This document shows, in pieces, positions 7,903 through 33,942 of a stretch of DNA of 64,000 bases; positions within the stretch are counted from its first letter, which is position 1; each line of letters starts with the position of its first letter. The DNA is from Spirochaetia bacterium. GTDB taxonomy: Bacteria; Spirochaetota; Spirochaetia; SZUA-6; Bin103. The stretch is from contig CBDBDQ010000005.1 in NCBI GenBank assembly GCA_965203905.1, positions 7,328,001 through 7,392,000 of the forward strand, written 5' to 3'. The translations under genes were made by a program, and so were the position numbers. A model generated the notes under the pieces. The model did no database searches, was not told the DNA's origin, and saw only the letters and a program-made list of their open reading frames with translations.

Positions 7903-7977
7903 TCACTGTTGGTGGATTCGTTCGAAGACCTCCGCCAGCTCCTCGATCGCCGCGTCATATCCTCCCTTTTCCCTGCG
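7903..7977 (-). pseudogene. Possible orphan C-terminal fragment of a solute-binding protein gene
   Basis: Reads RREKGGYDAAIEELAEVFERIHQQ* and starts at the edge of the AAA repeat; resembles SBP C-terminal helices. Confidence 0.35.
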
Positions 7978-8017
7978 CGCCGCCGCCTGGGCTGCGCACG
8001 TCGGTGCGGTCGTTGCG

Positions 8018-9790
8018 CTACGCCACCGCGTCGCTGAACACCATCTCCCAGCCGTGGAACACCACTGCCAAACCCGTGAACCGGACGGCCGGGAACTGCC
8101 GCGCCAGGCGCTCGTCCGCCAGGTAGCGCCGCAACTGCGCCGTGGCGTCGCCGGCCGCCGCCGCGACGGCCTCGTCGTCCGCCGGCTCGCCGCGAGCCAA
8201 GTACTTCAACTCGATCAGATAGCCGGTGCGCAGGTGCGGATAGCGCGCCAGCAACGGCTCCAGGCTGATGTCCGCGTGCCCCTTCCCCAGCTCCGCCTCC
8301 GACCGGAACACGTAGTAGCCTGCGACGCTCAAGTAGGCGGCCAGGAATCCCAGCGCCCCGGCACGGGGCGCCATGACCTTCTCCCCGCCGATGTAATCCC
8401 GTATCCCCGTCTGCGCCGCGATCGCCTCGCTCAGGTACTCCAGCACCGGCCGCCACTCGCCCTCGTTGGCCATCCCCAGCATCAGTTGCTCGAACCGGTG
8501 CAGGTCGACCCGGAACACCCCCACGTCCTTGTAGCCGTCGCGCAGGTAGCCGTACATCAGCCGCTTCACCGTCTGGTTCGGGATCGCCAGCGTCGGCGTC
8601 ACCCCCTGCACCTCGCGGATGCTCAGCAGCCCGAAGTAGTGCAGCAGCGACAGGAAGTTCTGCGGCTCGGCGAGCTCGTGCTGCGGAAAGCCGGGCTGGA
8701 TGTCGCTGTCCACCTGTTCCTCACCGATGATCGTCCGCAACAGGTCGAAGTTGCCGTTGAGCTGCCGCCCCACCACCAGCAGGTGGCGCAGCTTGCCGTA
8801 GTCGATGCGCACGTTGGTGTCGATCAGGTACTTCGGCACGCGTCGGTTCGGGATCGACTGGTCCAGGTAGTAGAGCACCATGTCGGTGTTGTAGAGGTCG
8901 GTCTCGGCCTCCTCCGCGAACCGGTAGCCGTTGTACCACTGGCCCATGATGCCCATGGCGGTGGCCACGTCCTGATTGAACACGCCGCAATCCCGGTAGG
9001 TCTCGACCAGGTTCCGCACCTCCGCCTCGGTGAAGCCGACCATCTCGTTGAAGTCGGGGTGCAGGCTGATGTTCTTGCCGATGTTGAAGCCGCTGGTGAC
9101 GTCGTCCATGGTCACCGGCGACACCCCGGTGATGAACAGGCGGTCGATGCCGCCGCCGCTGCGGTCCGTGCCGCCCTTGAGGGTGGCGAAGAAGCTGCGA
9201 AAGAAGCCGCCGCCGTGGGTGAAGGAGTGGTACGCCTCCGCGCCGTGGTGCGCCAGCACGGTGTTGGCGAAGTTGTCGTACTCGTCGATCAGCACGTACA
9301 GCGGAATGCCGTGGTCGCCGACGTAGCGGAACAGCTCTCCCAGCTTCTCGGTGATCGACGACGGTGCGAGGATCTCTCGCAGCGCCGCTTCGGGAAACAG
9401 GTCGGGATGCCGGCGCAGCGTCCCCCGCAGCTCCGTGTGGCAATGCCCCTCGAAGCGTTGCTCCAGGGTCTCCAGCTTGTCGCTTACCATCGAGAAGTTG
9501 AAGCGCAGGGTGACGTAGCGGCTGCGTTCCTCCGTCGGATCCCGACCGATGTCGGTGCCACCAAATGTGGCGTCGAAGTCGTCCGCCCAGAAGCGGTCGT
9601 AGTAGTTCTCCAGCAGCGACACCCACAGCGTCTTGCCGAACCGCCGCGGGCGGATCAGGAAGGCGTAGTGCTCCTGCTCCAGACGCCGCAGGAAGCGGGT
9701 CTTGTCCACGTACAGCCAGCGGTTCAGGCGAATGCGCCGGAAGTCGCCTTGACCGTAGGGAATGTGCGGATAAGCGGGAGTCTCGTCCAC
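8018..9790 (-). CDS. AAA-ATPase-like + C-terminal PD-(D/E)XK nuclease protein (AAA-ATPase_like/PDDEXK_9 architecture), copy 1
   Basis: 'YVDKT', Walker A RPRRFGKT, Walker B VLIDEYD, 'FITGV', 'WYNGYRF', nuclease 'GHADI...LIELKY'; GTG start equivalent to the ATG of copy 2. Confidence 0.9.
   Translation of the reverse strand: MDETPAYPHIPYGQGDFRRIRLNRWLYVDKTRFLRRLEQEHYAFLIRPRRFGKTLWVSLLENYYDRFWADDFDATFGGTDIGRDPTEERSRYVTLRFNFSMVSDKLETLEQRFEGHCHTELRGTLRRHPDLFPEAALREILAPSSITEKLGELFRYVGDHGIPLYVLIDEYDNFANTVLAHHGAEAYHSFTHGGGFFRSFFATLKGGTDRSGGGIDRLFITGVSPVTMDDVTSGFNIGKNISLHPDFNEMVGFTEAEVRNLVETYRDCGVFNQDVATAMGIMGQWYNGYRFAEEAETDLYNTDMVLYYLDQSIPNRRVPKYLIDTNVRIDYGKLRHLLVVGRQLNGNFDLLRTIIGEEQVDSDIQPGFPQHELAEPQNFLSLLHYFGLLSIREVQGVTPTLAIPNQTVKRLMYGYLRDGYKDVGVFRVDLHRFEQLMLGMANEGEWRPVLEYLSEAIAAQTGIRDYIGGEKVMAPRAGALGFLAAYLSVAGYYVFRSEAELGKGHADISLEPLLARYPHLRTGYLIELKYLARGEPADDEAVAAAAGDATAQLRRYLADERLARQFPAVRFTGLAVVFHGWEMVFSDAVA
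8353..8371. repeat. Intragenic perfect hairpin GCGCCCCG-GCA-CGGGGCGC (in-frame insertion encoding APRAGAL)
   Basis: 8-bp perfect stem; absent from the homologous fragment at 19480-19520. Confidence 0.8.
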
Positions 9791-9809
9791 TGAAGACCGT
9801 GCCGACGAC

Positions 9810-9838
9810 ACTCTATCGCCCGCGCGACGGCCCCTCAA
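9810..9838 (-). promoter_or_regulatory. Putative sigma70 promoter inside repeat copy 1
   Basis: TTGAGG-17 nt-TAGAGT on the minus strand, conserved in copy 2. Confidence 0.55.
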
Positions 9839-9879
9839 GCAGCGAACGGCCGCTCGGCGGCCCGCTCACTGGCGGCACG

Positions 9880-10062
9880 GTCAAGCCAGCCTGCTTGAGC
9901 ACTTGGCTCAGCGTACCGGCCCTCATGTCGTGCACCAGGATTCCCAGCCACCACCACTATGCCACGCTTGGTAGCGTGTCGCATCACCCGGTGGCTGCCC
10001 CGGCGACGAACCTCGTACCGACCGTCCTCGTGCAACTGCCTAAACACCTCCGCGCTACGTAC
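9880..10062 (-). pseudogene. hicA: Frameshifted HicA-family toxin
   Basis: VRSAEVFRQLHEDGRYEVRRRGSHRVMRH..KRGIVVVAG continues in a shifted frame as HDMRAGTLSQVLKQAGL; no proper start, no hicB. Confidence 0.8.
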
Positions 10063-10160
10063 GCCTCGCCTCAGTGGCGCCTCCGTCCGGCGTCACGACT
10101 GAAAGCGGGCCGGCGTCGTGGGCACCGCCCGGCACAGGGGACCTATGAACCTTGCTACCG

Positions 10161-10183
10161 AAAAGGACCGCCTGTAGGCGGTC
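10161..10183 (-). terminator. Putative intrinsic terminator
   Basis: Stem GACCGCCT/AGGCGGTC followed by CTTTT on the minus strand, downstream of the protease operon. Confidence 0.55.
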
Positions 10184-10327
10184 TAATCGGCGTCGCTGGC
10201 ATCGTCAAACGAATCCAGGTCGATGGTCTCGTCGCCTCTGGCTAACGTCACCCCATCGCTGTGCCCTATCAGCTCGAACCCGAGGGTCAGGGCACGCCTC
10301 TGAAGCATGTCCACGTAGTGTTTTGGC

Positions 10328-10837
10328 TCATGCTCCCTTGTCGGTATTGGGGGCTCTGGCTTTACCCTTTCTTACCCTAATTGCGTTCGGCGGCACATGC
10401 TTGGTGAAGTCCACTTCTGAATCGGACGGATATTGGAATGACACGACTGATCGACCATGCTTATGGGTGACGGCGAATCCGCTTTCCCTGATGATGTCCA
10501 TGCCAATCAGCATGTCATCTTCCATGATGCCGTCCATCACCTCGACTGCCTCAAAAAGCACTTCGTTCGGGAGTCGGATATTCACGGTGTAGAGATTCGC
10601 TTCCCGCGTTCCGTTCACCGTGTGCTGGATCTCTTGGTCAGTAGGCTGGAGATCCAACTTCTCCACGACCTGTTCGGAAATAACCGAAACCACGGCCCCG
10701 GTGGCCCAGACGGCCATGAACGGAAGATATGTCGGGGGGCTCCCCTCAGGCGGGCGCGGGGCTGCGATCTCCGCTTGGATCTCGAGAGTCCACTTGCGCT
10801 CCTTCGACCGCTCGGTGCACGATCTTACCGTAATCAT
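10328..10837 (-). CDS. Retropepsin-like (clan AA) aspartyl protease with catalytic Asp replaced by Ala
   Basis: 'AVWATGAVVSVIS' (canonical WDTGA) and 'DMLIGMDII'; ATGA overlap with the upstream gene. Confidence 0.8.
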   Translation of the reverse strand: MITVRSCTERSKERKWTLEIQAEIAAPRPPEGSPPTYLPFMAVWATGAVVSVISEQVVEKLDLQPTDQEIQHTVNGTREANLYTVNIRLPNEVLFEAVEVMDGIMEDDMLIGMDIIRESGFAVTHKHGRSVVSFQYPSDSEVDFTKHVPPNAIRVRKGKARAPNTDKGA

Positions 10838-11097
10838 TCAACGCGCAGTCTGCCGGAACGGAAGATTGCAGGGCGTTCTTCGTCTTTGCGGAGGCACTGC
10901 CGGATCAGGAAGATCGAATCGTCCGAGAAGTTTCTGACCGCGTGGAAGTATGCCTCCTTTCGGTCCGGGAAGAATCCAACGAAGTCCCCGCAGGCCAGCA
11001 GGTACTGGAGGTGGTGGTGACGGAGGTACTCCTCGCGCTCGGCCTCGATGCGGTCATTGAGCCGTCTGAGCTCCTTGATAGTTGCCGTGTCTGGCAT
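10834..11097 (-). CDS. Small hypothetical protein (DUF5678-like partner of the aspartyl protease)
   Basis: 87 aa, AGGAG RBS, translationally coupled; 'YLL...DFVGFF....EAY..AV..F' pattern. Confidence 0.65.
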   Translation of the reverse strand: MPDTATIKELRRLNDRIEAEREEYLRHHHLQYLLACGDFVGFFPDRKEAYFHAVRNFSDDSIFLIRQCLRKDEERPAIFRSGRLRVE

Positions 11098-11159
11098 GTG
11101 CTCTCTCTCCTGCAGGGCTGCTGGATGGTGGGTGTAGGGTAGCCGCTGCACCATCCGAC

Positions 11160-11198
11160 AAGTTATCCACAGGGTGGCAGACTGTCAAATCCCTTGAC
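11160..11198 (-). promoter_or_regulatory. Putative sigma70 promoter with overlapping DnaA-box consensus and inverted repeat
   Basis: TTGACA(11183-11188)-17 nt-TAACTT; TTATCCACA at 11163-11171; GTCAA-N5-TTGAC at 11184-11198. Confidence 0.55.
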
Positions 11199-11303
11199 GT
11201 TCAGCCGCGTGAGCGCGGCGACAGGTCCGGCGGCGAGGTTTACGCCCAAGGCGCATGGACGCGGGCCGCCGCCTGGGCTGCGCACGTCGGTTCGGTCGTT
11301 GCG

Positions 11304-13076
11304 CTACGCCACCGCGTCGCTGAACACCATCTCCCAGCCGTGGAACACCACCGCCAGACCCGTGAACCGCACCTCTGGGAACTGCCGCGCCAGGCGCTCG
11401 TCCGCCAGGTAGCGCCGCAACTGCGCCGTGGCGTCGCCGGCCGCCGCCGCGACGGCCTCGTCGTCCGCCGGCTCGCCGCGAGCCAAGTACTTCAACTCGA
11501 TCAGATAGCCGGTGCGCAGGTGCGGATAGCGCGCCAGCAACGGCTCCAGGCTGATGTCCGCGTGCCCCTTCCCCAGCTCCGCCTCCGACCGGAACACGTA
11601 GTAGCCTGCGACGCTCAAGTAGGCGGCCAGGAATCCCAGCGCCCCGGCACGGGGCGCCATGACCTTCTCCCCGCCGATGTAATCCCGTATCCCCGTCTGC
11701 GCCGCGATCGCCTCGCTCAGGTACTCCAGCACCGGCCGCCACTCGCCCTCGTTGGCCATCCCCAGCATCAGTTGCTCGAACCGGTGCAGGTCGACCCGGA
11801 ACACCCCCACGTCCTTGTAGCCGTCGCGCAGGTAGCCGTACATCAGCCGCTTCACCGTCTGGTTCGGGATCGCCAGCGTCGGCGTCACCCCCTGCACCTC
11901 GCGGATGCTCAGCAGCCCGAAGTAGTGCAGCAGCGACAGGAAGTTCTGCGGCTCGGCGAGCTCGTGCTGCGGAAAGCCGGGCTGGATGTCGCTGTCTACC
12001 CGCTCCTCACCGATGACGTTGCGCAGCAGATCGAAGTTGCCGTTCAACTGCCGGCCCACCACCAGCAGGTGGCGCAGCTTGCCGTAGTCGATGCGCACGT
12101 TGGTGTCGATCAGGTACTTCGGCACGCGTCGGTTCGGGATCGACTGGTCCAGGTAGTAGAGCACCATGTCGGTGTTGTAGAGGTCGGTCTCGGCCTCCTC
12201 CGCGAACCGGTAGCCGTTGTACCACTCGCCCATGATACCCATGGCGGTGTCTACGCCCTGATCGAACACGCCGTGGTCCTGGTAGGTTTCCACCAGGCGC
12301 CGTACCTCCGCCTCGGTGAAGCCGACCATCTCGTTGAAGTCGGGGTGCAGGCTGATGTTCTTGCCGATGTTGAAGCCGCTGGTGACGTCGTCCATGGTCA
12401 CCGGCGACACCCCGGTGATGAACAGGCGGTCGATGCCGCCGCCGCTCCGGTCCGTGCCGCCCTTGAGGGTGGCGAAGAAGCTGCGGAAGAAGCCGCCGCC
12501 GTGGGCGAAGGCGTGGTACGCCTCGGCGCCGTGGTGCGCCAGCACGGTGTTGGCGAAGTTGTCGTACTCGTCGATCAGCACGTACAGCGGGATGTCGTGG
12601 TCGGCCGCGTAGCGGAACAGTCGCCCGAGCTTGCCGGTGATCGACGGCGGCGCCAGGATGCGCTGCAACGCAGCCTCGGGAAACAGGTCGGGATGGCGCT
12701 CCAGCGTGCCCTCCAGCTCCGTGTGGCAGTGCATCTCGAATTCCCGCTCCAGCGTTTCGAGCTTGTCGTTGACCGCTGAGAAATCGAAGCGCAGAGTGAC
12801 GTAGCGGCTGCGTTCCTGCGTCGGGTCCTGCCCGATGTCCGTGCCGGCAAAGGTGGCGTCGAAGTCGCCGGCCCAGAAACGGTCGTAGTAGTTCTCCAGC
12901 AGCGACACCCACAGCGTCTTGCCAAACCGCCGCGGGCGAATCAGGAAGGCGTAGTGCTCCTGCTCCAGGCGCCGCAGGAAGCGGGTCTTGTCCACGTACA
13001 GCCAGCGGTTCAGGCGAATGCGCCGGAAGTCGCCTTGGCCGTATGGGATATGTGGGTACGCGGGAGTCTCGTCCAT
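11304..13076 (-). CDS. AAA-ATPase-like + PD-(D/E)XK nuclease protein, copy 2
   Basis: Same motifs as copy 1; ATG at 13076 (the longer ORF in the track is antisense read-through of the RTX gene). Confidence 0.9.
   Translation of the reverse strand: MDETPAYPHIPYGQGDFRRIRLNRWLYVDKTRFLRRLEQEHYAFLIRPRRFGKTLWVSLLENYYDRFWAGDFDATFAGTDIGQDPTQERSRYVTLRFDFSAVNDKLETLEREFEMHCHTELEGTLERHPDLFPEAALQRILAPPSITGKLGRLFRYAADHDIPLYVLIDEYDNFANTVLAHHGAEAYHAFAHGGGFFRSFFATLKGGTDRSGGGIDRLFITGVSPVTMDDVTSGFNIGKNISLHPDFNEMVGFTEAEVRRLVETYQDHGVFDQGVDTAMGIMGEWYNGYRFAEEAETDLYNTDMVLYYLDQSIPNRRVPKYLIDTNVRIDYGKLRHLLVVGRQLNGNFDLLRNVIGEERVDSDIQPGFPQHELAEPQNFLSLLHYFGLLSIREVQGVTPTLAIPNQTVKRLMYGYLRDGYKDVGVFRVDLHRFEQLMLGMANEGEWRPVLEYLSEAIAAQTGIRDYIGGEKVMAPRAGALGFLAAYLSVAGYYVFRSEAELGKGHADISLEPLLARYPHLRTGYLIELKYLARGEPADDEAVAAAAGDATAQLRRYLADERLARQFPEVRFTGLAVVFHGWEMVFSDAVA
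11639..11657. repeat. Intragenic perfect hairpin (APRAGAL insertion), copy 2
   Basis: Identical to 8353-8371. Confidence 0.8.
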
Positions 13077-13095
13077 TGAAGGCCGTGCCGACGAC

Positions 13096-13124
13096 ACTCT
13101 ATCGCCCGCGCGACGGCCCCTCAA
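13096..13124 (-). promoter_or_regulatory. Putative sigma70 promoter inside repeat copy 2
   Basis: TTGAGG-17 nt-TAGAGT. Confidence 0.55.
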
Positions 13125-13385
13125 GGAGCGAACGGCCGCTCGGCGGCCCGCTCGCTTGCGCGCGGCACGGCGCTCCTGCAGTTCCTCGAACCGGGCGCCA
13201 CATCCGCTATGGATGGCCCCCGCACCCCCCCTGGGTCGGCGGCGGGTTGTGTGATCTGTGTCCCCGCCGGCTGCTCCCGGGCGGGCGTAGATCACGTAAT
13301 ATTCTTGGTTTGCTCGCGTTTTGTCACGTTTCGAACACGAAGTTGGGAAATCGCATGCGGTACGCTTGGGGTGGAGGATAACGTA

Positions 13386-15098
13386 ATGCCAGAGACAACA
13401 GGCACTTCGGGCAACGACCAGATCTTCTCCGGCGACGGCGACCAGGAGATCTACGGCGGCGACGGCGACGACTTCATCTACTCCAGGGAGGGCGACGACG
13501 TACTCTACGGCGGCGACGGCAACGACAACGTGTCCGGCAACTGGGGTGACGACGAGGTCTACGGCGGTGCCGGCGAAGACAAAGTTTTTGGCGGGAGGGA
13601 CGACGACGAGGTCTACGGCGGTGCCGGCAACGACTGGGTCTCCGGCGGTCGCGGGAGCGACCGCGTCTACGGCGACGCCGGCGACGACACCGTTCTGGGC
13701 GGCACCGGCAACGACTACGTCTACGGCGGCACCGGCAACGACAAGGTCTACGGCGGCGGCGGCAACGACGAGGTCTACGGCGGCGAGGGGAGGGACACCA
13801 TCACCGGCGGTGAGGGTGACGACGTCCTGTATGGCGACGACCCCGATACGACTCCCGGCGACGGCAAGCCGACATTGCTCGACCGGAAGGGCGTCGTCGA
13901 CGACCAGGTCGGCGCGGACGAGATCTACGGCGGCGACGGTGCCGACACCATCTACGGTGGCATCGGCGCAGACACCATCCGGGGCGGCGGGGGTGCAGAC
14001 ACGATCCATGGCGGGGCAGGTGCAGACACGATCGAAGGTGATGTACTAGTCCTCAACCAGAACGACGCCCCGGCCGCCGACGAAATCTACGGTGGCGAAG
14101 GCGACGACACGATCCGCGCCAACCAAGGCGACGACACGGTCTACGGCGGTGAGGGCGCAGACACCATCTATGGTGGTGCGGGCGCAGACACGATCCATGG
14201 CGGTGACGGCGACGACACCATCTACGGTGGTGCGGGCGCAGACACGATCCGTGGCGATGCCGGCGCAGACACGATTCGTGGCGGTGCCGACGCCGACACC
14301 ATTCGTGGCGGTGCGGGCGCAGACATCATCCATGGCGATGGGGGCACCGACACCATCTATGGCGGTGACGGCGCCGATACGATCCATGGTGGCGAAGGCG
14401 GAGACAAGCTCTACGGTGGCGCCGGCAACGACACGGTGTACTCCGGCGGATACGGGGGCCTGGTCTACGGCGGTGACGGCGACGACACGCTCCACGCCGG
14501 CGGGGGCCGCGCCGGGCTTCAGGGTGACGCGGGCGACGACACGCTCATCGGCGGCGCCGGCGGTGACTCGATGTGGGGCGACAACAAGCTGAAGTACGGC
14601 CCGGCCGGCAACGACACGCTCGACGGCCGCGGCGGCAACGACAACCTCTTTGGCGGCCACGGAGACGACGTGTTGCGCGGTGGCTCCGGCCGTGACAGCC
14701 TCCACGGCGGCACCGGCACCGACACGCTCGACGGCGGTTCGGAGAACGACTGGCTCTACGGCTGGAAGGGCGACGACAGGATCGAGGGCGGCGGCGGCGA
14801 CGACAGCCTCACCGGCGGCGCGGGCGCGGATACGTTCGTGTTCGGTCCCGGACACGGGAACGACACCGTCAAGGACTTCGGCGACGGGGGCGACGTGATC
14901 GACCTCACGGCGCTGAGCGGCATTACCGGTTTCGACGACCTGACCATTACCGCGAGCGGCAACGACACCGTTATCGACTTGCGCGCGAACGGCGGGGGCA
15001 CGATCCGGCTGGAGGGCGTCAACGCCGCTGATCTGGATGCCGGCGACTTCCTGTTCCACGATCCGGCTACGGCGGACTCGGCTCAGGACGCCATGTAG
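13386..15098 (+). CDS. RTX-type (hemolysin-type) calcium-binding repeat protein, probable T1SS substrate
   Basis: GGAGG RBS; dozens of GGxGxDxxx nonapeptides; C-terminal 'GADTFVFG...DF...D.IDL...DFLF' secretion-type domain; no signal peptide. Confidence 0.9.
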   Translation: MPETTGTSGNDQIFSGDGDQEIYGGDGDDFIYSREGDDVLYGGDGNDNVSGNWGDDEVYGGAGEDKVFGGRDDDEVYGGAGNDWVSGGRGSDRVYGDAGDDTVLGGTGNDYVYGGTGNDKVYGGGGNDEVYGGEGRDTITGGEGDDVLYGDDPDTTPGDGKPTLLDRKGVVDDQVGADEIYGGDGADTIYGGIGADTIRGGGGADTIHGGAGADTIEGDVLVLNQNDAPAADEIYGGEGDDTIRANQGDDTVYGGEGADTIYGGAGADTIHGGDGDDTIYGGAGADTIRGDAGADTIRGGADADTIRGGAGADIIHGDGGTDTIYGGDGADTIHGGEGGDKLYGGAGNDTVYSGGYGGLVYGGDGDDTLHAGGGRAGLQGDAGDDTLIGGAGGDSMWGDNKLKYGPAGNDTLDGRGGNDNLFGGHGDDVLRGGSGRDSLHGGTGTDTLDGGSENDWLYGWKGDDRIEGGGGDDSLTGGAGADTFVFGPGHGNDTVKDFGDGGDVIDLTALSGITGFDDLTITASGNDTVIDLRANGGGTIRLEGVNAADLDAGDFLFHDPATADSAQDAM

Positions 15099-15103
15099 GA
15101 CGG

Positions 15104-15133
15104 CCCGCGGGCTAAGCGCCCGCGGGGTAAGCG
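15104..15133. repeat. 15-bp tandem repeat/hairpin between convergent genes
   Basis: CCCGCGGGCTAAGCG CCCGCGGGGTAAGCG; CCCGCGGG is self-complementary, possible terminator. Confidence 0.45.
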
Positions 15134-19397: not shown

Positions 19398-19620
19398 GCG
19401 AACGAGGCGAGTGGCAACGGTCTTCGCGTTTTCTGAGCGACGTGATCACGGAGACGGGATCCACGACTGCATCGCCGGCGAGAAGGTGAAACAGGAATTC
19501 CTGGCGGCCTACCTGAGCATGACCGGAGTAGCCAGGCTCCTTGCACCAGCCTGATCGAAGCTGCAGTGTCGGGCCCTACCGAAGGGATGCCTCGTGAGCA
19601 GCTCAGGCCGCTGTTGGCCT
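19398..19620 (+). pseudogene. Degraded third copy (C-terminal part) of the AAA-ATPase/nuclease gene
   Basis: With frameshifts reads ANEGEW..VF.FLSDVITETGIHDCIAGEKVKQEFLAAYLSM, versus ANEGEWRPVLEYLSEAIAAQTGIRDYIGGEKVM[APRAGAL]GFLAAYLSV; right end approximate. Confidence 0.8.
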
Positions 19621-19839
19621 ACTGGCACGCTGCTATGGCGCCTCGCTACCGCTGCACATCGGTGACTCGGAGGATGCACGGATGAATGCCAGGTGATCGT
19701 CCTACCCCGGCGCGATCTCGACCCCATCCCGCAGCAAGATCAGGATAGTACCGCCGCAGCAAGCGTGGTTACTGCGACCGATTGCAGACGCCGGTGACAG
19801 ATGGGACGGAGCTAACACCGGAAGCGACTGTGCCTTGCC

Positions 19840-20405
19840 TCATGTTGTCCTCGGATGTATGGTAGCGGCAAACCTCCCCGCCGTCCGGGTCCACGTGGCT
19901 TGAACTGGCGGGCTTTTTCTTATTTCGAAACGCTGCGACACGTCATCGACCCACACCAGCGTTCGCCATGGCTTCCTGGAGGGATGAAAGAGCCTTGCAG
20001 TTTCATCCTGGCAGCGACGGAGCGCAGTACGGATGGCGTTCGGCTCTGCAGCACCGGCTCTGAGCAGGGACGGGATGACCGGAGCAACCGTCGACTGATC
20101 TGTGTTGCGATACCGGTGTATTGCGTGCAGAGGAGACCAGGGATTCCATGCTGATAGCACGCCGCGACTATCTCGTCACCGTCGAATGACGAGTATCCAC
20201 AGCGGGACTTCAATCGATAGGTGCACAGCACTGCCTGCGCTCTGTGCTGCACTCCTGCGACGAAATGGTCGAGATCCGCTATGGGTCCTGCTTCAGGGAC
20301 CGGTGTGATCCCCAGGTCCTCGATCGAGTACGCGTATCCCTCCCGCGCTCTCGCATCGTCGTCGATCACCAGAATCCGGTCGATCGCGTCCGCGCTCCTG
20401 GTCAC
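19840..20405 (-). pseudogene. Frameshifted atypical receiver-domain protein
   Basis: 'RILVIDDDARAREGY...AVLCTYRL....FDGDEIV' continues in another frame as 'IPSLL...FHPSRKPWRTLVWVDDV'. Confidence 0.6.
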
Positions 20406-20544
20406 GTCAGGTCCCCAGGAGCGGAAGTTGCCCGGTGATCTCCGCCGCTCCGAGGTCGCCGTGCCCTCGGGCGGCGACTTCACCTTTCCAGTCGACGCCC
20501 GCCGCCGACGCGTTTCCTGCTTCGTTCACTGTACCTGCAGTTTA

Positions 20545-21171
20545 TCAGTTCGGCGTGTCCCGTCCGGCAGCCGGCTTCGATGGAGAAGGCGTAGTCTGCG
20601 CCGGTGGGCTGTTATTGCGTAGCGGCTCCATCCGGGGATACAGAGTAGATTGCTTGGGATCGTTGACCTTAGGCGCCTCCCCTATACGGGAACGGGAACG
20701 GATCGCATCCGCTATTGGTGCGAGTCGTGATGGACCTGAGAACATTCCTTCCGTGGCGATCCTTCGAATTTCAGCGACTTCCATCGTCGCCATGAACTTG
20801 AACACTCTAGCAACGGAGTCGCGTCTCGATTTCGGTTCGGCCTGATCGATCCTATAGATCTGATAGAAATTGCGAACATCACCAAGGCTTGGCAGGAAAG
20901 ACTTGCTCTCGAACAGTTCCGCAAGCTCCACCAGTACTGTTCTCGTTTCCTCATCAAGTTCCATCTTGGCGACACACTCTAGTGCGTTCATCCTGCTCCT
21001 ATTCTTCTTCTTGGAAGTAGCGGAGTCAGCGTTGTCTACTTCTCTGTGTGGTTCTCGGCGATTGGTGGAATCGCGTGATGCAGCAACATCACGAAGATTC
21101 TCTTGAACCCTATCCAATCCGTATTGACGAACCAATGAACGCAATGAGTCTCTGAGTTTCGTGTCCCTCAT
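20545..21171 (-). CDS. Hypothetical protein coupled to ParA
   Basis: 208-aa ORF in lower-GC DNA; ATGA overlap with the parA stop. Confidence 0.7.
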   Translation of the reverse strand: MRDTKLRDSLRSLVRQYGLDRVQENLRDVAASRDSTNRREPHREVDNADSATSKKKNRSRMNALECVAKMELDEETRTVLVELAELFESKSFLPSLGDVRNFYQIYRIDQAEPKSRRDSVARVFKFMATMEVAEIRRIATEGMFSGPSRLAPIADAIRSRSRIGEAPKVNDPKQSTLYPRMEPLRNNSPPAQTTPSPSKPAAGRDTPN

Positions 21172-22040
21172 GACTGCGTACCACCCGTATCTGTTGTGCC
21201 GTGTAAGAGTTTCTCGAAGAACTCCCGTGCGAAGTGTTCAAAGAGGATAGCATCGCCGAGATGATGGTAGTCTCCGCGCATCATCTTTGGAAAGCCGCGC
21301 GAGAACGGGATCTGGTTGTCGAATACGAACCATCCGCTCTGGCGTGCTTCGGAACGTATCTCCATAATCGATCTCTTTCTTTCGGGGCCACCTCTGTTCC
21401 CACTGTAGTGATAGGAAGAGTTGATGATGACAACGCCAATCACATCAATCTGATGGCCTCGGTTGTCGTTTCTGAACTTGCTGAGGGAGTCATTCAGCAG
21501 CGGAAATCCAATGGTTGCGAAGTACTCCGGTCTAACAGGAACTAGGACGTAGCGTGAGGCATGATATGCGGCTTGTGTGAATATGGACTCGGTCGGGGCA
21601 CAATCGACGATGATGAGATCCATGTCCTGAAAGTTCTGGGAGATGATTCGTGCCAAGATCCGTGCATCGGGTCTGATCGATCCAATCAGGTGATCCGAGA
21701 AATCGAATCTTGATGGAATAAGCCGTAAGTTAGGCTCAACATCCTTCGTCGCTTGATCGATGTCAAGTGACGTCGGTGATGACGCCGAGCCCGATGGAGG
21801 CTGGTATCCGTTGAACATCTCGACAATAGACGGTGAATGATCCCTCAGAAACCGCCGATATGAATGATCTCCCAGCAAAGCCTGCGAAAGATTCGCCTGC
21901 GGGTCGAGGTCAACTGCTAGAACCTTCAAATCGGCTTCCCTTGACGCGTGTCGGCACAGCAGCGAAGCGACGGTGGTCTTACCAACTCCGCCCTTCATGT
22001 TGATCACGGAAACGCAGATTGGACGATGATTAGCTATCAT
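21168..22040 (-). CDS. ParA/Soj-family ATPase
   Basis: Deviant Walker A 'NMKGGVGKTT', 'VDLDPQANLS', 'IVDCAP'; GAAGGA RBS. Confidence 0.9.
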   Translation of the reverse strand: MIANHRPICVSVINMKGGVGKTTVASLLCRHASREADLKVLAVDLDPQANLSQALLGDHSYRRFLRDHSPSIVEMFNGYQPPSGSASSPTSLDIDQATKDVEPNLRLIPSRFDFSDHLIGSIRPDARILARIISQNFQDMDLIIVDCAPTESIFTQAAYHASRYVLVPVRPEYFATIGFPLLNDSLSKFRNDNRGHQIDVIGVVIINSSYHYSGNRGGPERKRSIMEIRSEARQSGWFVFDNQIPFSRGFPKMMRGDYHHLGDAILFEHFAREFFEKLLHGTTDTGGTQS

Positions 22041-22186
22041 TAGGAATTCCTTCTCGAATCCGCCATCGACTCGTCGAAGATGAGTCGTTCGAACGCGACA
22101 TAACACCGATGGCGCGTGGATTAGCCTGACTGGTCTACAGGGCAACGTGCCACTACGGAAAAGGGACGGCGCGTGATCGGCTGCAA

Positions 22187-22780
22187 CTATGCCAGGCACG
22201 TCTCTCCATTCCCTTGTCGCGATACGCTCGGCTTGAGCAGTGGCAGACGTACCGTGTCGCATCTGTTCCAGCGAGTGTCGGAAGATCGCAACTGGATTGA
22301 ACGCCATAGGCGCAGCCTCAGATCGGACAGCGGTGGTGCCGTATGGGGGCCGGGGTGCCCATGCGGATGCCTCTCGAACAGAAGATCCCACAGGTAGCGG
22401 TAGCTCTGTCCGTGCAGGCTCTCACTGATGACGTGCATCCCGCCGGGCAGCGGCAGCTCGGCGAGCTTCGCGTTGCCGAGCCGATCCGCCCATGTCCACA
22501 GCCCGCTGCGCGCGGGCTCCGGCGCGATGAAGGTGTGGTACAGCATTGCCATCAGGTGCGACTTGCCCTGTCCGCGCTCGCCGATCAGCACGAAGGGCCG
22601 CCCGTGCCCGGCGCCCACCGTCTCGATCGCGGCGAGAGCGTCCGCCGACGGATAGGTGATCTCGAGGAAGTCTGCGGCCGCGATCTGCGTGGCGCCCGTG
22701 TTGCTGGAGTTGGTCAGCTCGATCGCCGTGCCCTTGAGCCGGCGCCCGCGAAACTCCTTGCGCAGCGTCAGATGAAGCAT
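22187..22780 (-). pseudogene. Truncated DUF499-family AAA+ ATPase (N-terminal ~140 aa)
   Basis: 'FLEITYPSAD', Walker A 'GERGQGKSHLMA'; similarity ends at 'FERHPHG' (~22355); full members are far longer. Confidence 0.7.
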
Positions 22781-22900
22781 TGCGTCAGTCTACCCCACCA
22801 CAGCCCACCTTGCCCTCTCGCTGATGGTCCGTTGCGTGCCATGCGGGCCCGATGATAGCCCAACCGGCGCACGCTGGCAGTGCCAACGGCGAATCTAAGG

Positions 22901-23608
22901 TCAGTGCGGCATCTGATCCCAGGTTCGGCCGTCGAGCGTCCGCCCCGTCCGCTTCTTGAACACGCCTCCCCACTGTTTGAAGAAGAACGGCACCTCGCTG
23001 GTTACACAGTTGTCGCGGATGGCGCGTACCCAATCAGCGTCCATGGGCCGTGCGCCCGGGCCCGACTCACCGCCGACGATCACCCAGTCGATACCCTCCA
23101 GCGCAAGGTGCGGCAACGGTCCGAGCAGGGGCTCGATTGACAGGAACCTCGTTTGGGCGCCGGTCTCCTTGAGTGCCGCCAGCCGTCCGAGCCACTGTTC
23201 CGACTCTATGCTCGTACCGAGCCAGATGTTCGGAGTCCAGTGCAAACGACGGTTCAACTCGACGACGCGGCGCGGCCGCTTGGTAAGCACCTGAAAGGTG
23301 TGGCGGGATGCCCGGTTCATGACCTCGAAGACGGCTTCGATGAACGCGGACGGTACCGAGTCGTGGAACAGGTCGGACATGGAATTGACGAACACGAGCC
23401 TTGGCCGACGCCACTTCAGCGGCTCTCCGAGAGTCGACTCGTGTACGGCGACCGAGAATCCGCCCCGGTACTTAGCCACTCCCATGGCCTGCAGTCTCCT
23501 GGACAACCGCTCCGCGTAGCAGAACTTGCACCCCGGGCTGATCTTCGAGCAGCCCGTGACCGGGTTCCAGGTGACCTCGGTCCACTCGATCGCGGAGCGC
23601 GTCGACAC
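22901..23608 (-). CDS. DUF5131 (phage Gp37/Gp68) family three-Cys radical-SAM-like protein
   Basis: 'IEWT..TWNPVTGCSKISPGCKFCYAE', 'FVNSMSDLFH', 'LTKRP', 'WVIVGGESG', 'FFFKQWGG'. Confidence 0.93.
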   Translation of the reverse strand: MSTRSAIEWTEVTWNPVTGCSKISPGCKFCYAERLSRRLQAMGVAKYRGGFSVAVHESTLGEPLKWRRPRLVFVNSMSDLFHDSVPSAFIEAVFEVMNRASRHTFQVLTKRPRRVVELNRRLHWTPNIWLGTSIESEQWLGRLAALKETGAQTRFLSIEPLLGPLPHLALEGIDWVIVGGESGPGARPMDADWVRAIRDNCVTSEVPFFFKQWGGVFKKRTGRTLDGRTWDQMPH

Positions 23609-23610
23609 CG

Positions 23611-24445
23611 TTACAGGTTCTCCAGGATGTGGCCCGCGATACGCTGCGCGGCGCCGATAGCCTTGCCACTACGACTGCCGACGCAGAACAGAAACTCGAA
23701 CAGCGGCGCGCTCGTGGAGTTTCGCAGAGTTCGCGACCGCTTGAGAAACCGGGCACCGAACAACATCGCAAGTTTGTTCTTGTAGATGTCGAGTAGTCCG
23801 TCCACGCCAGGATCCCTTTCATGCTCGACATTGCCAAACAGAGTCTGCTGCGGGTTTTGCCGGTACAACTCACGCCAACTGTCATCGCCGAACACCGTGG
23901 TCAGCCGGGCAACCCAGCCGGGTGCGATGTCGTCCGGTCTCCTCGCCGTCGGTAGCATTCGCGCTATCGCGGATACCGGAAACAGAATCCACGTGTCCAA
24001 CGCGTCGAATCCAGCTATCCGTTCGATGGTGGACCACTCCACCTCCGTAGCGAAGGGGTCAAGAAACAGGACGCCGCGCCAGCGACGCCAATCCTGATGA
24101 AGATCATGCAGAAACCTGTTCGCATCCGCGTTTACGATTTTAATGTCGCGGTCAGGCCACCCTGCTCTGAGACGTTCAAGCTCATCGCATCGCGCCGGTC
24201 CTTCTCGACGAATATCAACCTGTCGAATTGTTTGTCGCCTACGTCCAACGCTATCGTTGCCGGAACCGCGCATGAAGTCGGTAGCCTCAGGATCATCCTG
24301 CTGGAGCTCTACGTAACCGCTACCGCGAAGGCGTCGATATACATGAGCTGGAACGGCTGATTCTTCAGAGCCGTGGTATATGCGTTCAGGTACGTTTCGA
24401 GTATACCGAGCTTCTCGCGGGTCCATCGTCCGCCGTAGCGGGCTC
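23611..24445 (-). pseudogene. tcmP: Three-Cys-motif partner protein TcmP, multiple frameshifts
   Basis: GGRWTREKLGILETYLNAYTTALKNQPFQLMYIDAFA/GSG (shift near 24325); a second shifted stretch ATIALDVGDKQFDRLIFVEKD; intact 'FLDPFA' C-terminal half; adjacent to DUF5131. Confidence 0.8.
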
Positions 24446-30295: not shown

Positions 30296-30748
30296 TCAGT
30301 TGTCAGCCTCGTCCTTGTCCCCGTCCTCGTCCTGAGACGTGGCCTTGATGAGCGTCACGACGTTGCAGCCCTCTTCCCGGCGGTATTCGACGGTGTCCAT
30401 CATCTGGTGCACCAGGAACAGCCCCAGACCGCCAAGGGGAGTGTCTTCGAGCGACGTATCGAGGTCGCGTTCCGGCACCAGCGCCAGATCGAACGGCATG
30501 CTGTCGTCCACGATCACCACCACCAGGGACTGCTCTTCCAGGCGCACGATGATCTCGATCTGGTGGCGCTCGTCATCCTCGTAGCCGTAGCTGATGGTGT
30601 TGGTCAGGATCTCGTCGATCGCCAGGTTGAGCGCGTAGGCGGCGTGCTGCAGGTCATGCGCCGCGCAGAACCCGTCGATCTGTGCCGCGGCACCCGCAAT
30701 CTCGCGCAGCTCATTGGCGAGCGAGATCTCCAGCCACTGGTCACTCAT
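30296..30748 (-). CDS. RsbW/SpoIIAB-like anti-sigma factor Ser/Thr kinase (HATPase_c_2)
   Basis: 'LAIDEILTNTISYGY', 'DDSMPFD', 'GGLGLFLV..MMD.VEY'; ATGA overlap with hlyD. Confidence 0.88.
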   Translation of the reverse strand: MSDQWLEISLANELREIAGAAAQIDGFCAAHDLQHAAYALNLAIDEILTNTISYGYEDDERHQIEIIVRLEEQSLVVVIVDDSMPFDLALVPERDLDTSLEDTPLGGLGLFLVHQMMDTVEYRREEGCNVVTLIKATSQDEDGDKDEADN

Positions 30749-32061
30749 TCTTCACGCAGGGAGCGCAGGAAGTAATCGCTCAGCGGCTTGGCCAGATAGC
30801 TGAGCGGAGAACGCTCTCCGGTCTGGATGTGGATCTCCACCGGCATGCCGGGCGTCAGGGTGAGGCCGGCGGTCCGCAGCCTGCCGGACTCCGCGGGCCC
30901 GCCCAGGGTCACTTCGACCACGTACCACGCCCGGCCGCTGTCGTCGTCGCGCACGGCGTCTCCCGAGACCCGCCGTACCTGCCCCTCGTACTCCGGCGTC
31001 GTACGCGCCGGAAAGGCGCTGAAGCGCAGCTTTGCCGGCTGCCCCGGGTACACCTGGTCGACGTGGATCGGCGCGAGCTGCGCCTTCGCCACCAGGTCCG
31101 CTCCCGCCGGCACGATCTGCAGGATCGGCTCACCCGGCAGCACCACCTCGCGCGGCGCGAATACCCGCATGCCGAACACCTCACCCGTCACCGGGGCGCG
31201 CACCTCCAGCCGCCCCAGGCGCTCGCGGACCGCGGCCAGCCGCTCCCGCACCTCGTTCTCGCGGGAGTGGACCTCGCGCGCCTGCTCCTCCGCCTCCTCG
31301 ATCCGCCTGGTGTCGATCTGCAGGATCAGGAGCTCGTATTCCGCGATGCGGCTGCGCGTGCGGGCGATGGCGGCGGTGTTGGTCCCCGCCTGTCCCCGCA
31401 GGTTCTCCGCGGCGCGCTCCAGTGAGAGCAGCGCGCTGCGGTCCATGCCGCCCTGCTCGACCAGCCTGCGCCTGGCGCCGAGTTCCTCGGCGAGCAGCAC
31501 GCTCTGCTGCTGCAGCGCCGCGGCCCGCGCCTCCAGCCCGGCGATCTCCTGCCGCGCCTGCGCGATCCGTTCGCGCAGCCGCGCCACTTCGCCGGTGCGC
31601 GCGTCGTTACGCGCCCGGAACAGCCGCTCCTGCCCCGCGAGGATCTCCCGTACGTCCGCGTCGCTGGTGCCGAGCGCGGCGAGCTCCGGGTCCCACGCCA
31701 CGGTGTCCGCGTTGCGGAACTCCGCCTCCAGCCGGTTGCGCCGTGCCACCAGCTCGACATGCTGCGCCCGCAGGATCGCCGCTTCCGAGCGCGGCAGCGC
31801 ATCGTCGAACCGCAGCAGCACGTCACCGGCCGCTACCTCGGCACCGTCCCGCACCATGATCTCGCTCACCGTGCCGCCGTCGATGTGCTCCACGACCTGG
31901 TTGTGGCTCTCGGTCGCCACCCAGCCGCTCACGATCACGGCGCCGGAAATCGAGGCGAGCACGCTCCAGCCGGCGATTCCGCCAACCAGCACCGCCAGCG
32001 CACCGAAGCCGAGGCTCAGCGCGGCGCGCGCCGACGACCAGCGTGTCGCGGCCCGTTCCAC
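30745..32061 (-). CDS. HlyD/PrtE-family type I secretion membrane fusion protein
   Basis: N-terminal TM, 'VEHIDGGTV', coiled coil, 'RAPVTGEV', 'PGMPVEIHIQTGERS..SYL.KP'. Confidence 0.93.
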   Translation of the reverse strand: MERAATRWSSARAALSLGFGALAVLVGGIAGWSVLASISGAVIVSGWVATESHNQVVEHIDGGTVSEIMVRDGAEVAAGDVLLRFDDALPRSEAAILRAQHVELVARRNRLEAEFRNADTVAWDPELAALGTSDADVREILAGQERLFRARNDARTGEVARLRERIAQARQEIAGLEARAAALQQQSVLLAEELGARRRLVEQGGMDRSALLSLERAAENLRGQAGTNTAAIARTRSRIAEYELLILQIDTRRIEEAEEQAREVHSRENEVRERLAAVRERLGRLEVRAPVTGEVFGMRVFAPREVVLPGEPILQIVPAGADLVAKAQLAPIHVDQVYPGQPAKLRFSAFPARTTPEYEGQVRRVSGDAVRDDDSGRAWYVVEVTLGGPAESGRLRTAGLTLTPGMPVEIHIQTGERSPLSYLAKPLSDYFLRSLREE

Positions 32062-32070
32062 CGCCGTCCG

Positions 32071-33942
32071 CTACGACGCGCCGGGCTGCGCGCCCGGCTC
32101 GGGGAGTGTCTCGGTGGCGGCCGCGTCCGAGGGAGCGGCGCGAGCGCCCACCACGCGCTCGATGGCACGGGCAATCTGCTTCTCCCGTGCCGGGTCAGGG
32201 GTGGCGGAGCGTCCATTCGCGGGCTGCCTGGTGGGCACTCTGCGCCCACCCGCGGCCGGTGCGCGCCGCGCCGGCGGCGGGCGGCGCCGCGCCCGCGCCG
32301 GGACCGGCCGTCCGCCCTCCATCAGGTACACCCGGTCGCACTGGGCGAAGGCGCCGTGGCGGTGCGCCACGATCACCGCCGCGCCCGCGCGCGCCTTGTG
32401 CTCCTTTACCGCTGCGGCGAGCGCCATGGTGCCCTCGGCGTCCAGGTTGGAGTCCGGTTCGTCCATCACCACCACCACCGGGGAGCCGTAGAACGCGCGC
32501 GCCAGGGCGATGCGCTGGCGCTGACCGCCCGACAGCGCCGCGCCGCCCGCCGACACCTGGAAGTCGTACCCGCCGGGCAGCTTCAGGATCATTTCGTGCG
32601 CCCCGGTACGCTTGGCGGCCTCGACCACCGCCGCGGCGTCGGGCACCGGTGCCAGGCGCGCGATGTTTTCCGCCACGGTACCGTCGAACAGCACCACTTC
32701 CTGTGGCAGGTAGCCGATGTGGCGCCCCAGCTCAGCCGTGCCGTAGTGGTCCAGCTCGGCGCCGTCGAGCCGCACCGACCCCGCGAGCGGCCGCCACACC
32801 CCGGCAAGGGCGCGCGCCAATGTCGACTTGCCCGAGGCGGAGGCGCCGGCGATCCCCGCCGCCTGCCCGGCCTCCAGCCGCAACGACGCTCCCCGCACCA
32901 CCGCGTACCGCGTGCCCGGCGGCGCCACGATGAGGTTCTGCGCCTCCAGCCTGGCGCGCGGCGCAGGCAGCGCCGTCCGCGGCTCCTCCGACGGCGTATC
33001 GCCGAGCAGCTTTCCGAGCTCGCGCCACGCCTCCACCGCGCGCTGCAGCCGCGGCCAGTACCCGACCGCCTGGTCGATCGGAGCCAGCGCCCGCCCCAGC
33101 AGGATCGAACCGGCGATCATGATCCCGGGCGTCACCTCGCCGCGCAGCGCCAGCAACGCCCCCAGACCCAGCATCATCGACTGCAGGAACAGGCGCAGGG
33201 TCTTGGTGAGCGCCAGGTAGAGCCCGTTGCGATCGGATGCCGCGAGGGTCTTGTCGAGGAGGCGGTTGCGCAGCGCCCGAGAACGCGCCAGCACGGCGTC
33301 GAGCATGCCGAGGCCCTGTACCGTCTCGCCTCCGGCACGCACCTGCTCGATGAAGTGGGTGGCATGTGCGGTGGCCTCCCCCGCCTCGCGCTGCAGCGCC
33401 CCGGTGCGGGCCTGGTTGATCAGCGCCACCGCGAGCAGCAGGAAGCCCGAGAACACGGCCAGCACGCCCAGCATCCAGTGGAACACGAACAGCACGAACA
33501 GGAACACCGGAGTCCACGGGGCATCGAAGAAGGTGAACGCCCCCGGACTGGACGCGAACCGTTGAATCGCCTCCAGATCGTTCAGGCCGGTGGCCGGGCG
33601 CGAGCGCTCGGCCGGCGCCACGGAGCGCACCATGATCGCCCGCAGCACGCGCGGGTCGAGCCGTTCCTGCAGGCGCGCTCCGACCCGGGCGAGGACCCGC
33701 CCGCGGGCATGATCGAGCACACCCATGAGCAGGAACAGGAACGCCACCAGGGCGGCGAGGGTAGCCAGCGTCGCGTCCGAACGGGAACTCAGCACCCGGT
33801 CGTAGATCTGCAGCATGAACAGCGGCCCGGTCAGCATCAGCACGTTCACCGCCATGCTGAACAGGCCGCATGCCACGAACAGCCGCCGGCTCTCCGCGAG
33901 CGCCGCGCGGATCTCCCGGTCGCCGTTTCGGTTGTCCGTCAT
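32071..33942 (-). CDS. PrtD-family type I secretion permease/ATPase
   Basis: 'FMLQIYDRVLSSRS', 'FFDAPWTP', GASASGKST, LSGGQRQR, 'MDEPDSNLD'. Confidence 0.93.
   Translation of the reverse strand: MTDNRNGDREIRAALAESRRLFVACGLFSMAVNVLMLTGPLFMLQIYDRVLSSRSDATLATLAALVAFLFLLMGVLDHARGRVLARVGARLQERLDPRVLRAIMVRSVAPAERSRPATGLNDLEAIQRFASSPGAFTFFDAPWTPVFLFVLFVFHWMLGVLAVFSGFLLLAVALINQARTGALQREAGEATAHATHFIEQVRAGGETVQGLGMLDAVLARSRALRNRLLDKTLAASDRNGLYLALTKTLRLFLQSMMLGLGALLALRGEVTPGIMIAGSILLGRALAPIDQAVGYWPRLQRAVEAWRELGKLLGDTPSEEPRTALPAPRARLEAQNLIVAPPGTRYAVVRGASLRLEAGQAAGIAGASASGKSTLARALAGVWRPLAGSVRLDGAELDHYGTAELGRHIGYLPQEVVLFDGTVAENIARLAPVPDAAAVVEAAKRTGAHEMILKLPGGYDFQVSAGGAALSGGQRQRIALARAFYGSPVVVVMDEPDSNLDAEGTMALAAAVKEHKARAGAAVIVAHRHGAFAQCDRVYLMEGGRPVPARARRRPPPARRAPAAGGRRVPTRQPANGRSATPDPAREKQIARAIERVVGARAAPSDAAATETLPEPGAQPGAS

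Follow-up and report, generated by a model that had tools for sequence, protein, structure and literature searches.

The window (the whole 64,000-nucleotide stretch of contig CBDBDQ010000005.1 from a Spirochaetia bacterium, 64 kb in length) carries two DUF1703-type genes, both of which hold, at the start of their nuclease region, an in-frame palindromic insertion (net +18 nucleotides, nt) read as the peptide APRAGAL; the origin and spread of this insert are the subject of the present analysis, and all coordinates are collected in Table 1. Copy 1 encodes 590 residues in its database form (P0003), with its open reading frame (ORF) staying open back to a TTG at 9838. The protein matches PF09820 (AAA-ATPase_like; E 2.6e-44, 151.9 bits, cut-off 26.1) in its N-terminal and PF08011 (PDDEXK_9; E 2.8e-11, 43.7 bits, cut-off 25.5) in its C-terminal part, which is the DUF1703 architecture as given in PMC6387759. 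Its AlphaFold2 model, with a mean predicted local distance difference test score (pLDDT) of 91.3, resembles in its fold the Cdc6/ORC and STAND ATPases, including Apaf-1, NLRs and Avs3. No match was obtained in PADLOC or NCBIfam, and no sequence relative with a solved structure in the PDB; as PADLOC gave no match, membership of the host gene in a defence system was dropped. Comparison of the two window copies gives a ratio of nonsynonymous to synonymous substitution rates (dN/dS) of 0.23, and comparison of the window with L011, a locus of a Spirochaetia metagenome-assembled genome (MAG), one of 0.36; judged by their sequences the host genes are intact and under purifying selection.

On the gene strand, both copies read AAG GTC ATG GCG CCC CGT GCC GGG GCG CTG GGA TTC (KVM-APRAGAL-GFL), in which GCGCCCCG-TGC-CGGGGCGC forms a hairpin with a perfect 8-bp GC stem; on the plus strand it reads GCGCCCCG-GCA-CGGGGCGC, at 8353-8371 and 11639-11657. 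The initial annotation, made from the letters of the window, had reported this hairpin in both genes and a third copy without it, and both readings hold: the third copy reads GEKVKQE-FLAAY, with KVKQE-FL at the site, but is only a 24-residue remnant, with 16 of 24 residues identical (30 alignment columns when a 6-column gap is counted). The two occurrences in the window were treated as one event rather than as independent ones, since they lie inside a 1.9-kb duplication with no differences over 8091-8710, and thus within a single duplication or conversion tract. Elsewhere the duplication units differ at 115 positions, grouped in dense patches, which at the sequence level have the look of a gene-conversion mosaic.

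Besides the two exact matches, the palindrome has one match with two mismatches in the window, at 3045, which is at chance level (0.85 expected). Perfect hairpins with stems of at least 8 bp are common there (16 matches at 13 places, versus 10.6 +/- 4.3 in 30 dinucleotide shuffles), and in-frame stretches of 30 nt drawn at random from family genes contain a perfect stem of at least 8 in only 0.3% of cases. A hairpin coinciding exactly with an 18-nt indel exceeds chance, whereas hairpins as such do not, and a chance hairpin was rejected on these grounds. A search of the entire window against Rfam at the gathering threshold came back empty, as did one of 8250-8480 in which E values up to 1 were admitted; no known RNA family was obtained as an identity for the hairpin.

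Table 1. Positions of the host genes, the insert, the repeats around them and the palindromic insertions of the gene family
Feature	Position	Strand	Remarks
DUF1703-type gene, copy 1	8018..9790	-	N-terminal ORC/STAND-like ATPase and C-terminal PD-(D/E)XK nuclease; insert present
DUF1703-type gene, copy 2	11304..13076	-	590 residues; 94% identical to copy 1; same insert
APRAGAL codons, copy 1	8351..8371	-	GCG CCC CGT GCC GGG GCG CTG; net +18 nt, in place of one ancestral Gln codon
APRAGAL codons and hairpin, copy 2	11637..11657	-	one event with copy 1, duplicated or converted
Direct duplication, 1.9 kb	7975..9874 (unit 1) and 11261..13160 (unit 2)		94% identity
Difference-free tract, 620 nt	8091..8710, partner 11377..11996		includes the insert
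Family remnant	19456..19527	+	GIHDCIAGEKVKQE-FLAAYLSMTG; site empty; tblastn E 0.058
Palindromic insertion 1	APRAGAL site		stems of 8 and 7
Palindromic insertion 2, 27 nt	L009, about 11500-11560; turn before invariant Asp507		GTCGGT-GCCA-ACCGAC and outer GGCCA/TGGCC stem
Palindromic insertion 3, RSERFQ units, 18 nt	directly after Glu527-x-Lys529		AGCGCTC-N-GAGCGCT
Palindromic insertion 4, RRGRLQ unit			GTCGCC-GTG-GGCGAC
Palindromic insertion 5, 10 residues	L073		GGCGGC-AGTAC-GCCGCC

Homologues were collected at E <= 0.001 (7782 proteins, the best 120 with 79-100% identity). In 122 aligned rows of close homologues, 105 read EK[VI]xQ-GFL, as the initial annotation had expected of most of them, and 17 read EKVx[A/E]PR[A/S]GAL-GFL. 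When the homologue search was scored on residues 462-530 only, the filled proteins ranked at the top (at least 112 bits), followed by a drop to empty ones. The close homologues that could be classified comprise 26 filled and 147 empty protein clusters, with the filled clusters falling into two haplotypes, A-type (A-PRAGAL, 15 clusters) and E-type (E-PRAGAL, 11 clusters). Distant full-length representatives (32-60% identity) align through the site without extra residues in 80 of 83 cases, the remaining three (P0130, P0224, P0263) not being aligned at the site. A further set of 75 loci was fetched from genomes of Spirochaetia, Vicinamibacterales, Latescibacterota and Gammaproteobacteria; 84 of the 85 family copies that cover the site in these loci are empty, and the sole filled one is L011. 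As all distant relatives aligning at the site and 84 of 85 locus copies lack the insert, the empty state is ancestral, and the proposed frame-preserving insertion is a true one. To judge from the sequences, the insert is proper to a single sub-lineage, made up of close relatives of Spirochaetia type.

An origin of the empty allele by plain loss of the hairpin was rejected, because without the 18 nt Met-Leu or Leu-Leu would remain, whereas Gln, His or Lys stands there in each of the 147 classified empty alleles. Use of the ATG created by the A-type insert behind a GGAG-like run as an internal start was dropped, because E-type alleles have no ATG and the hairpin starts directly after it. An assembly artefact is unlikely, since the insert recurs in frame in many independent assemblies. 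As for the family as a whole, members with 58-69% protein identity occur in MAGs labelled Vicinamibacterales, Latescibacterota, Gammaproteobacteria, Longimicrobiales and Spirochaetia (loci L016-L075), and tandem arrays are frequent (L062 and L020, three copies each, about 1.85 kb apart), which suggests horizontal spread combined with local amplification.

Carriers of the insert are scattered over the gene tree. All trees were calculated with FastTree on a recombining family; on the tree of 151 rows, from which the insert columns had been excluded, 15 changes are required for 18 carriers, 13 of these changes being forced by well-supported branches, compared to a mean of 17.2 changes for shuffled carrier labels (21 of 500 shuffles as low as 15). 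Partial trees gave 17 changes for the N-terminal part, 14 for the C-terminal part and 14 for the local +/-50 columns, and a single clade with a simple vertical indel was rejected on the scatter in whole and partial trees. The nearest relative is an empty allele for 11 of the 18 carriers, with six of the seven exceptions forming three near-duplicate pairs; P0009 (filled) and P0019 (empty) agree at all but 13 of 596 residues. The chromosome that appears to be the window's has five filled copies (the two window copies, P0007, P0117 and the fragment P0283) and three empty ones (P0004, P0005, P0055), the five filled copies belonging to different parts of the tree and all reading VM-APRAGAL, and a 2.97-Mb contig encodes two filled proteins, both with IV-EPRAGAL. 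This pattern is what within-genome spread looks like.

Ordinary polymorphisms of the family behave similarly. In a control of 148 residue states with 12-26 carriers, the number of changes per carrier had a median of 0.59 and a 90th percentile of 0.81, the value for the insert being 0.83, and two other nuclease-domain indels equal the insert in their scatter (18 carriers with 12 changes, 5 carriers with 5). Linkage between polymorphic sites decays within about 10 residues, r2 being 0.14 for sites 1-5 residues apart and 0.04 for those more than 160 residues apart. The pairwise homoplasy index (PHI; own implementation, 16 Spirochaetia-type genes) was 0.525, against 0.567 +/- 0.004 in permuted data, with none of 300 permutations as low. 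The family recombines heavily, and mosaic paralogues occur within one genome, as in the window with its patchy differences and its 620-nt identical tract; recombination among DUF1703 paralogues has been reported in Cardinium and Rickettsia (PMC6387759). Filled alleles also show hints of common descent: residue -5 is Gly in 10 of 15 A-type and Ala in 9 of 11 E-type clusters (Fisher p = 0.021), and the site is preceded by Val-Ile in most empty alleles (106 of 147), compared with just 1 of 26 filled ones. Such linkage with the -1 codon and with residue -5, though weak, points to descent rather than to random re-insertion into empty backgrounds.

Since ordinary substitutions are nearly as scattered as the insert, linkage decays fast and PHI shows recombination, gene conversion probably explains the spread, and we hold with even confidence that the insert is an allele and not an element, which arose once or a few times and was passed by gene conversion from one paralogue to another. 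In one Spirochaetia lineage, a frame-keeping palindromic indel of 18 nt would have arisen once or very few times, displacing the ancestral Gln codon at the first turn of the core helix of the nuclease; the palindrome would most likely have been born by template switching or fold-back synthesis during recombination-associated DNA synthesis, which would be common in the family. Short-tract gene conversion would then have moved it between paralogues and related genomes, leading to its patchy presence and absence, and quasi-palindrome correction, possibly with selection on an mRNA hairpin, would keep the arms complementary.

Along with the 18-nt gain, the 3' junction differs in three to four bases (TCAG became GCTG in the window, and ACAA/GCAG became TTTA in L011), and the codon preceding the insert has a different third base. 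A perfect inverted repeat with clustered flanking substitutions in one event is likewise found in template-switch (quasi-palindrome) mutations (PMC8794818, PMC7202029, bioRxiv 10.1101/2023.08.09.552703), which have been linked to replication and to double-strand-break repair synthesis, the tie to break-repair synthesis being made in bioRxiv 10.1101/2023.08.09.552703. These mutations differ from the insert in being defined by a nearby reverse-complement donor, and the cases described in the available text of these sources concern RNA and reporter genes, not in-frame insertions within protein-coding paralogues. Of the two template-switch features examined, the insert thus shows one, a perfect repeat accompanied by substitutions at the junctions; its new sequence is not the reverse complement of a nearby template, and in the stretches searched a local donor was rejected.

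DNA of filled alleles comprises two independent haplotypes, that of the window and that of L011, which reads GTG CTG GAG CCC CGT GCC GGG GCT TTA GGA. Between the two, stem pair 7 has undergone a double change from C-G to A-T (GCG..GCG versus GAG..GCT), stem pair 8 a change from G-C to G.U, and CTG...TTA in L011 extends the helix to 11 bp. As the synonymous divergence between the window and L011 genes is 0.35, the palindrome has outlived appreciable change. RNA folding yielded -35.2 kcal/mol (z -2.65) for the window and -36.6 kcal/mol (z -3.49) for L011, versus z +0.72 for an empty paralogue. Several of the insert codons are rare in 17 family genes (TTA 3 of 1064 Leu, GCT 5.2% of Ala, CGT 5.5% of Arg), where GGG accounts for 18.8% of Gly and CCC for 27.6% of Pro. 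Upon synonymous recoding, a fold at least as stable was reached in 0.3% (window) and 1.0% (L011) of cases with 36-nt segments and the usage of the 17 Spirochaetia-type family genes, and in 2.6% and 8.2%, respectively, with 30-nt segments and the usage of all 77 genes; a perfect stem no shorter than the observed one was reached in 0.6-1.5%. The codon-level hairpin signal, read from the sequences of two haplotypes, is real but modest.

A hairpin that is functional, as mRNA or as single-stranded or cruciform DNA, and that is kept by nucleotide-level selection could produce the same signal; it might act as a pause at the border between ATPase and nuclease, as an RNase or protein site, or as an initiator of recombination. 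The double change at pair 7, the 11-bp helix, the fold z-scores and the recoding probabilities (0.003-0.08) would all be accounted for, as would the rare codons TTA, GCT and CGT, which improve pairing, and the wobble pairs, which are G.U on the sense strand in either haplotype. Variation among the proteins is concentrated in the loop codon, with Ala changed to Ser or Pro in 4 of 26 (P0037, P0280, P0281, P0282), yet P0281 (APRPGPL) implies one broken stem pair. Only two independent DNA haplotypes bear on the question, most family members do without the hairpin, Rfam has no match for it, and it is not an intrinsic terminator, as no U-tract follows it. Moreover, quasi-palindrome correction gives the same 'compensatory' pattern without selection: one template switch can create and repair hairpins, including multi-base changes of this kind (PMC8794818). 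Selection on the hairpin as the main cause is, in our judgement, unlikely, though to be reckoned with.

Several observations weigh against the origin of a single allele and its spread by conversion. A one-residue indel at alignment column 488 is cleanly tree-like, needing just 6 changes for 49 carriers, and the tree is not pure noise. The insert has no linkage to any flanking polymorphism (r2 <= 0.06), and at the DNA level the flanks of the window and L011 inserts resemble different empty alleles, with no common +/-60-nt flank: L011 ranks 5th-6th of 14 for the +/-60 nt of the window, and the window 14th of 15 for those of L011. Conversion tracts would therefore need to be very short, unless the insert was created anew at this position. 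The case for maintenance of the hairpin comes from the two DNA haplotypes, and the recoding probabilities depend on the set-up (0.003 and 0.010 versus 0.026 and 0.082). In 10 kb around the window genes and in the 21.8-kb L011 locus, no template-switch donor was found, there being no direct or reverse-complement match of at least 10 nt near the site except the other gene copy; both arms of the palindrome are new, unlike in a simple fold-back copy of flanking sequence.

The initial annotation had proposed a very small mobile palindromic element or the footprint of one. Searches for such an element covered the 64-kb window of an apparently 7.8-Mb genome, the related loci and plasmids. In the window the palindrome has no copy beyond the two genes. 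Its core, CCCCG-N3-CGGGG, occurs 11 times in the 1,613,104 nt of window and loci, where the three occurrences at the insert site share flanks and the other eight share none. Plasmids (7.3 Gb), searched with 49 nt around the insert, yielded 56 records, all of them partial matches in unrelated genes at chance level (best E 0.02). Among 60 window ORFs scanned against Pfam there is no transposase and no HUH/RAYT (Y1) domain. No larger element breaks the site in any of the 85 family copies of the loci, nor was one with ends like the palindrome arms seen in the window. The palindrome having been found, within the sequence searched, only at one site of one gene family, it was not filed as a mobile element.

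Rickettsia palindromic elements, which form sequence families, are about 100-150 bp long and dispersed in many unrelated genes and intergenic sites. The present insert has 18 nt and is found at one site of one gene family, and not in frame in several unrelated genes. Repetitive extragenic palindromic sequences (REPs) and bacterial interspersed mosaic elements (BIMEs) with RAYT resemble the insert in being short GC-rich palindromes of about 20 nt (PMC3733652); according to this source, however, REPs have 20-40 bp, are high-copy and extragenic and carry a GTAG or CGTC tag, whereas the insert is confined to one coding site, is untagged and has no RAYT in the window. Inspection by eye of the window and L011 inserts with their adjoining bases revealed neither tag on either strand, and instead of many dispersed, mostly extragenic copies there are two in the window, both in the duplicated gene, and none outside the site in 1.61 Mb.

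A miniature palindromic element with a specific target, or the footprint of an excised inverted-repeat transposon, would be compatible with presence and absence between near-identical genes such as P0009 and P0019, with filled paralogues lying beside empty ones on what is apparently the window's chromosome, and with the palindrome itself, as two inverted-repeat ends plus a target duplication would leave one. Against it stand the unshared flanks of the core elsewhere, the chance-level plasmid matches and the lack of a transposase in the window, the missing GTAG/CGTC tag, the linkage of filled alleles to the preceding codon and the -5 site, and the other palindromes of the family, which are unrelated in sequence (see below). 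The insert shows no sign of being a tiny jumping element, and mobility is not supported; it may conceivably be the footprint of an excised transposon, but taken together we consider these two readings improbable.

As the initial annotation had placed it, the site falls where the PD-(D/E)XK domain begins, four positions past a Glu (E470) that is kept in at least 90% of 93 aligned family proteins. Statements on structure refer to predicted models used without coordinates, the model alignments consisting mostly of empty sequences. In the model of the empty P0004, a helix spanning residues 470-481 begins at E470 and leads to the first core strand, whereas in that of the filled P0003 the helix begins at the inserted Pro475 and E470 is found in a loop with a pLDDT below 50; pLDDT values of the blocks 461-470 and 471-480 are 49 and 63 in the filled and 61 and 86 in the empty model. 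According to the models, the insert shifts the register of the helix start and moves the conserved Glu into a flexible loop, whereby nuclease activity or specificity is probably altered. Given its position in a core helix, its nucleotide pattern and the other palindromic insertions of the family, the insert is not an ordinary loop variant, a possibility that the initial annotation had raised for a hairpin restricted to this gene family with synonymous changes breaking its stem; the hairpin is indeed limited to the family, but its stem survives the changes seen in the one DNA comparison that is independent.

Further insertions were surveyed in a DNA alignment of 16 genes (insertion columns 1515-1542 and 1621-1692) and in a protein-guided survey of 77 intact genes. 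Under our own grouping of events, five of the eight insertions of at least three residues have a perfect stem of at least 6 (Table 1); the three non-palindromic ones are a 4-residue insert of a gammaproteobacterial group, a 15-nt form of L012 at the L009 site and a short insert in L003. Random in-frame 30-48 nt segments of the same genes contain a stem of 6 in 2.6-5.9% of draws. Five palindromic events out of eight have, by hand arithmetic, a probability of about 2e-5 at p = 0.05 and of about 0.003 at p = 0.15, the latter being roughly the rate in recoded insert peptides. The family palindromes share no sequence and are therefore not one element family. Recoding of the other inserts often leaves them palindromic (P 0.09-0.19 for stems), so that most are unsurprising at the codon level; as far as the sequences tell, the oddity is which peptides were inserted, not the codons of most of the other inserts. 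The 18-nt RSERFQ/RRGRLQ units stand in tandem after the ELK motif in 0 to 3 copies (L003, L004, L007, L008, L012, L014 and L015, at about 11600-11700). The window genes contain none of the L009-type or RSERFQ/RRGRLQ insertions.

All three variable sites are located 2-4 residues from conserved catalytic-type residues: site A starts four residues after E470, site B three to four before the invariant D507, and site C two after E527-x-K529. Together with the frequent palindromy of the other inserts after recoding and an overall fold like that of STAND/ORC ATPases including Avs3, this placement would suit a diversification at the protein level, in which insertions remodel the active-site loops of a conflict-type protein and palindromy is incidental to a GC-rich Ala/Pro/Arg/Gly filler. 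However, derivation from a palindrome is much more frequent among the insert peptides than among random gene segments, rare codons at site A improve pairing, and PADLOC has no match for the host protein. We regard diversification of this kind as a rather doubtful explanation of the insert.

Very unlikely, in our estimate, is a self-propagating, family-specific cassette, in which the hairpin, kept as a nucleotide structure, biases gene conversion in its own favour. The insert might remove a site at which empty alleles are cut by the family's own structure- or sequence-specific PD-(D/E)XK nuclease, amounting to a minimal, intron-free 'homing', or alternatively it might be a break-prone initiator of recombination that diversifies the active-site loops. 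Such a cassette would account for the presence of the same VM-APRAGAL, on varied backgrounds, in about five of the eight paralogues that seem to belong to the chromosome of the window.

Mobile GC clusters of yeast mitochondria are another near comparison. Coding palindromes of Nematomorpha mitochondria (PMC6649704) are likewise perfect inverted repeats in translated genes, a compromise between protein and nucleic acid; they differ in reaching up to 284 bp and in that both arms encode conserved protein, whereas here a short insert adds new residues. Expansions of DUF1703 in symbionts (PMC6387759) share with the present family the combination of PF09820 and PF08011, many paralogues per genome, reticulate relationships and recombination by PHI and RDP4, but their paralogues have a mean identity of 39%, compared with about 80-94% here, and no palindromic indels are described in the available text of that source. 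A narrow literature search returned no description of palindromic indels in DUF1703 genes.

If the insert is an allele spread by conversion, heavy gene conversion in a multi-copy bacterial family both makes and spreads short hairpin-coding insertions, and mobility-like presence and absence can come from recombination alone, which calls for caution in searches for mini-elements based on filled versus empty sites. Should the hairpin instead be under selection or skew conversion, it would represent a novel type of minute cassette within coding sequence, either selfish or regulatory. As the insertions lie beside catalytic residues of a widespread nuclease (DUF1703), the filled and empty alleles are ready-made variants for working out its function.

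The 1.4-kb spacer between the two gene copies (9875-11260) contains an ORF at 10328-10837 with a weak match to retroviral-type aspartyl proteases (PF13975, E 8.8e-7) and an ORF of 106 residues at 10834-11154 without a family. Adjoining the family remnant at 19456-19527 is a low-GC patch (19800-23700; 55% GC at 20001-22000, versus 63-73% elsewhere in the window) with a ParA/AAA_31-like gene (21168-22391), familyless ORFs and a DUF5131 gene (22901-23608, E 5e-99), possibly the remains of a mobile island that has decayed. A gene with an N6_N4 DNA methyltransferase domain (46364-47287) stands amid the housekeeping genes dnaK, dnaJ, purD and der; a partner nuclease was not noticed. Two RTX nonapeptide-repeat proteins (PF00353) with a 27-nt periodicity are encoded at 13209-15098 (plus strand) and 33989-35596 (minus strand), the first gene being followed by a terminator-like hairpin at 15104-15126; near the RTX genes, an HlyD-like gene and an ABC exporter gene (30745-33942) form a type I secretion set. 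A MotA/ExbB-family gene at 56507-57712 has a 21-nt tandem periodicity at 56591-57041, corresponding to a heptapeptide repeat of about 15-20 units that are 61-87% alike.

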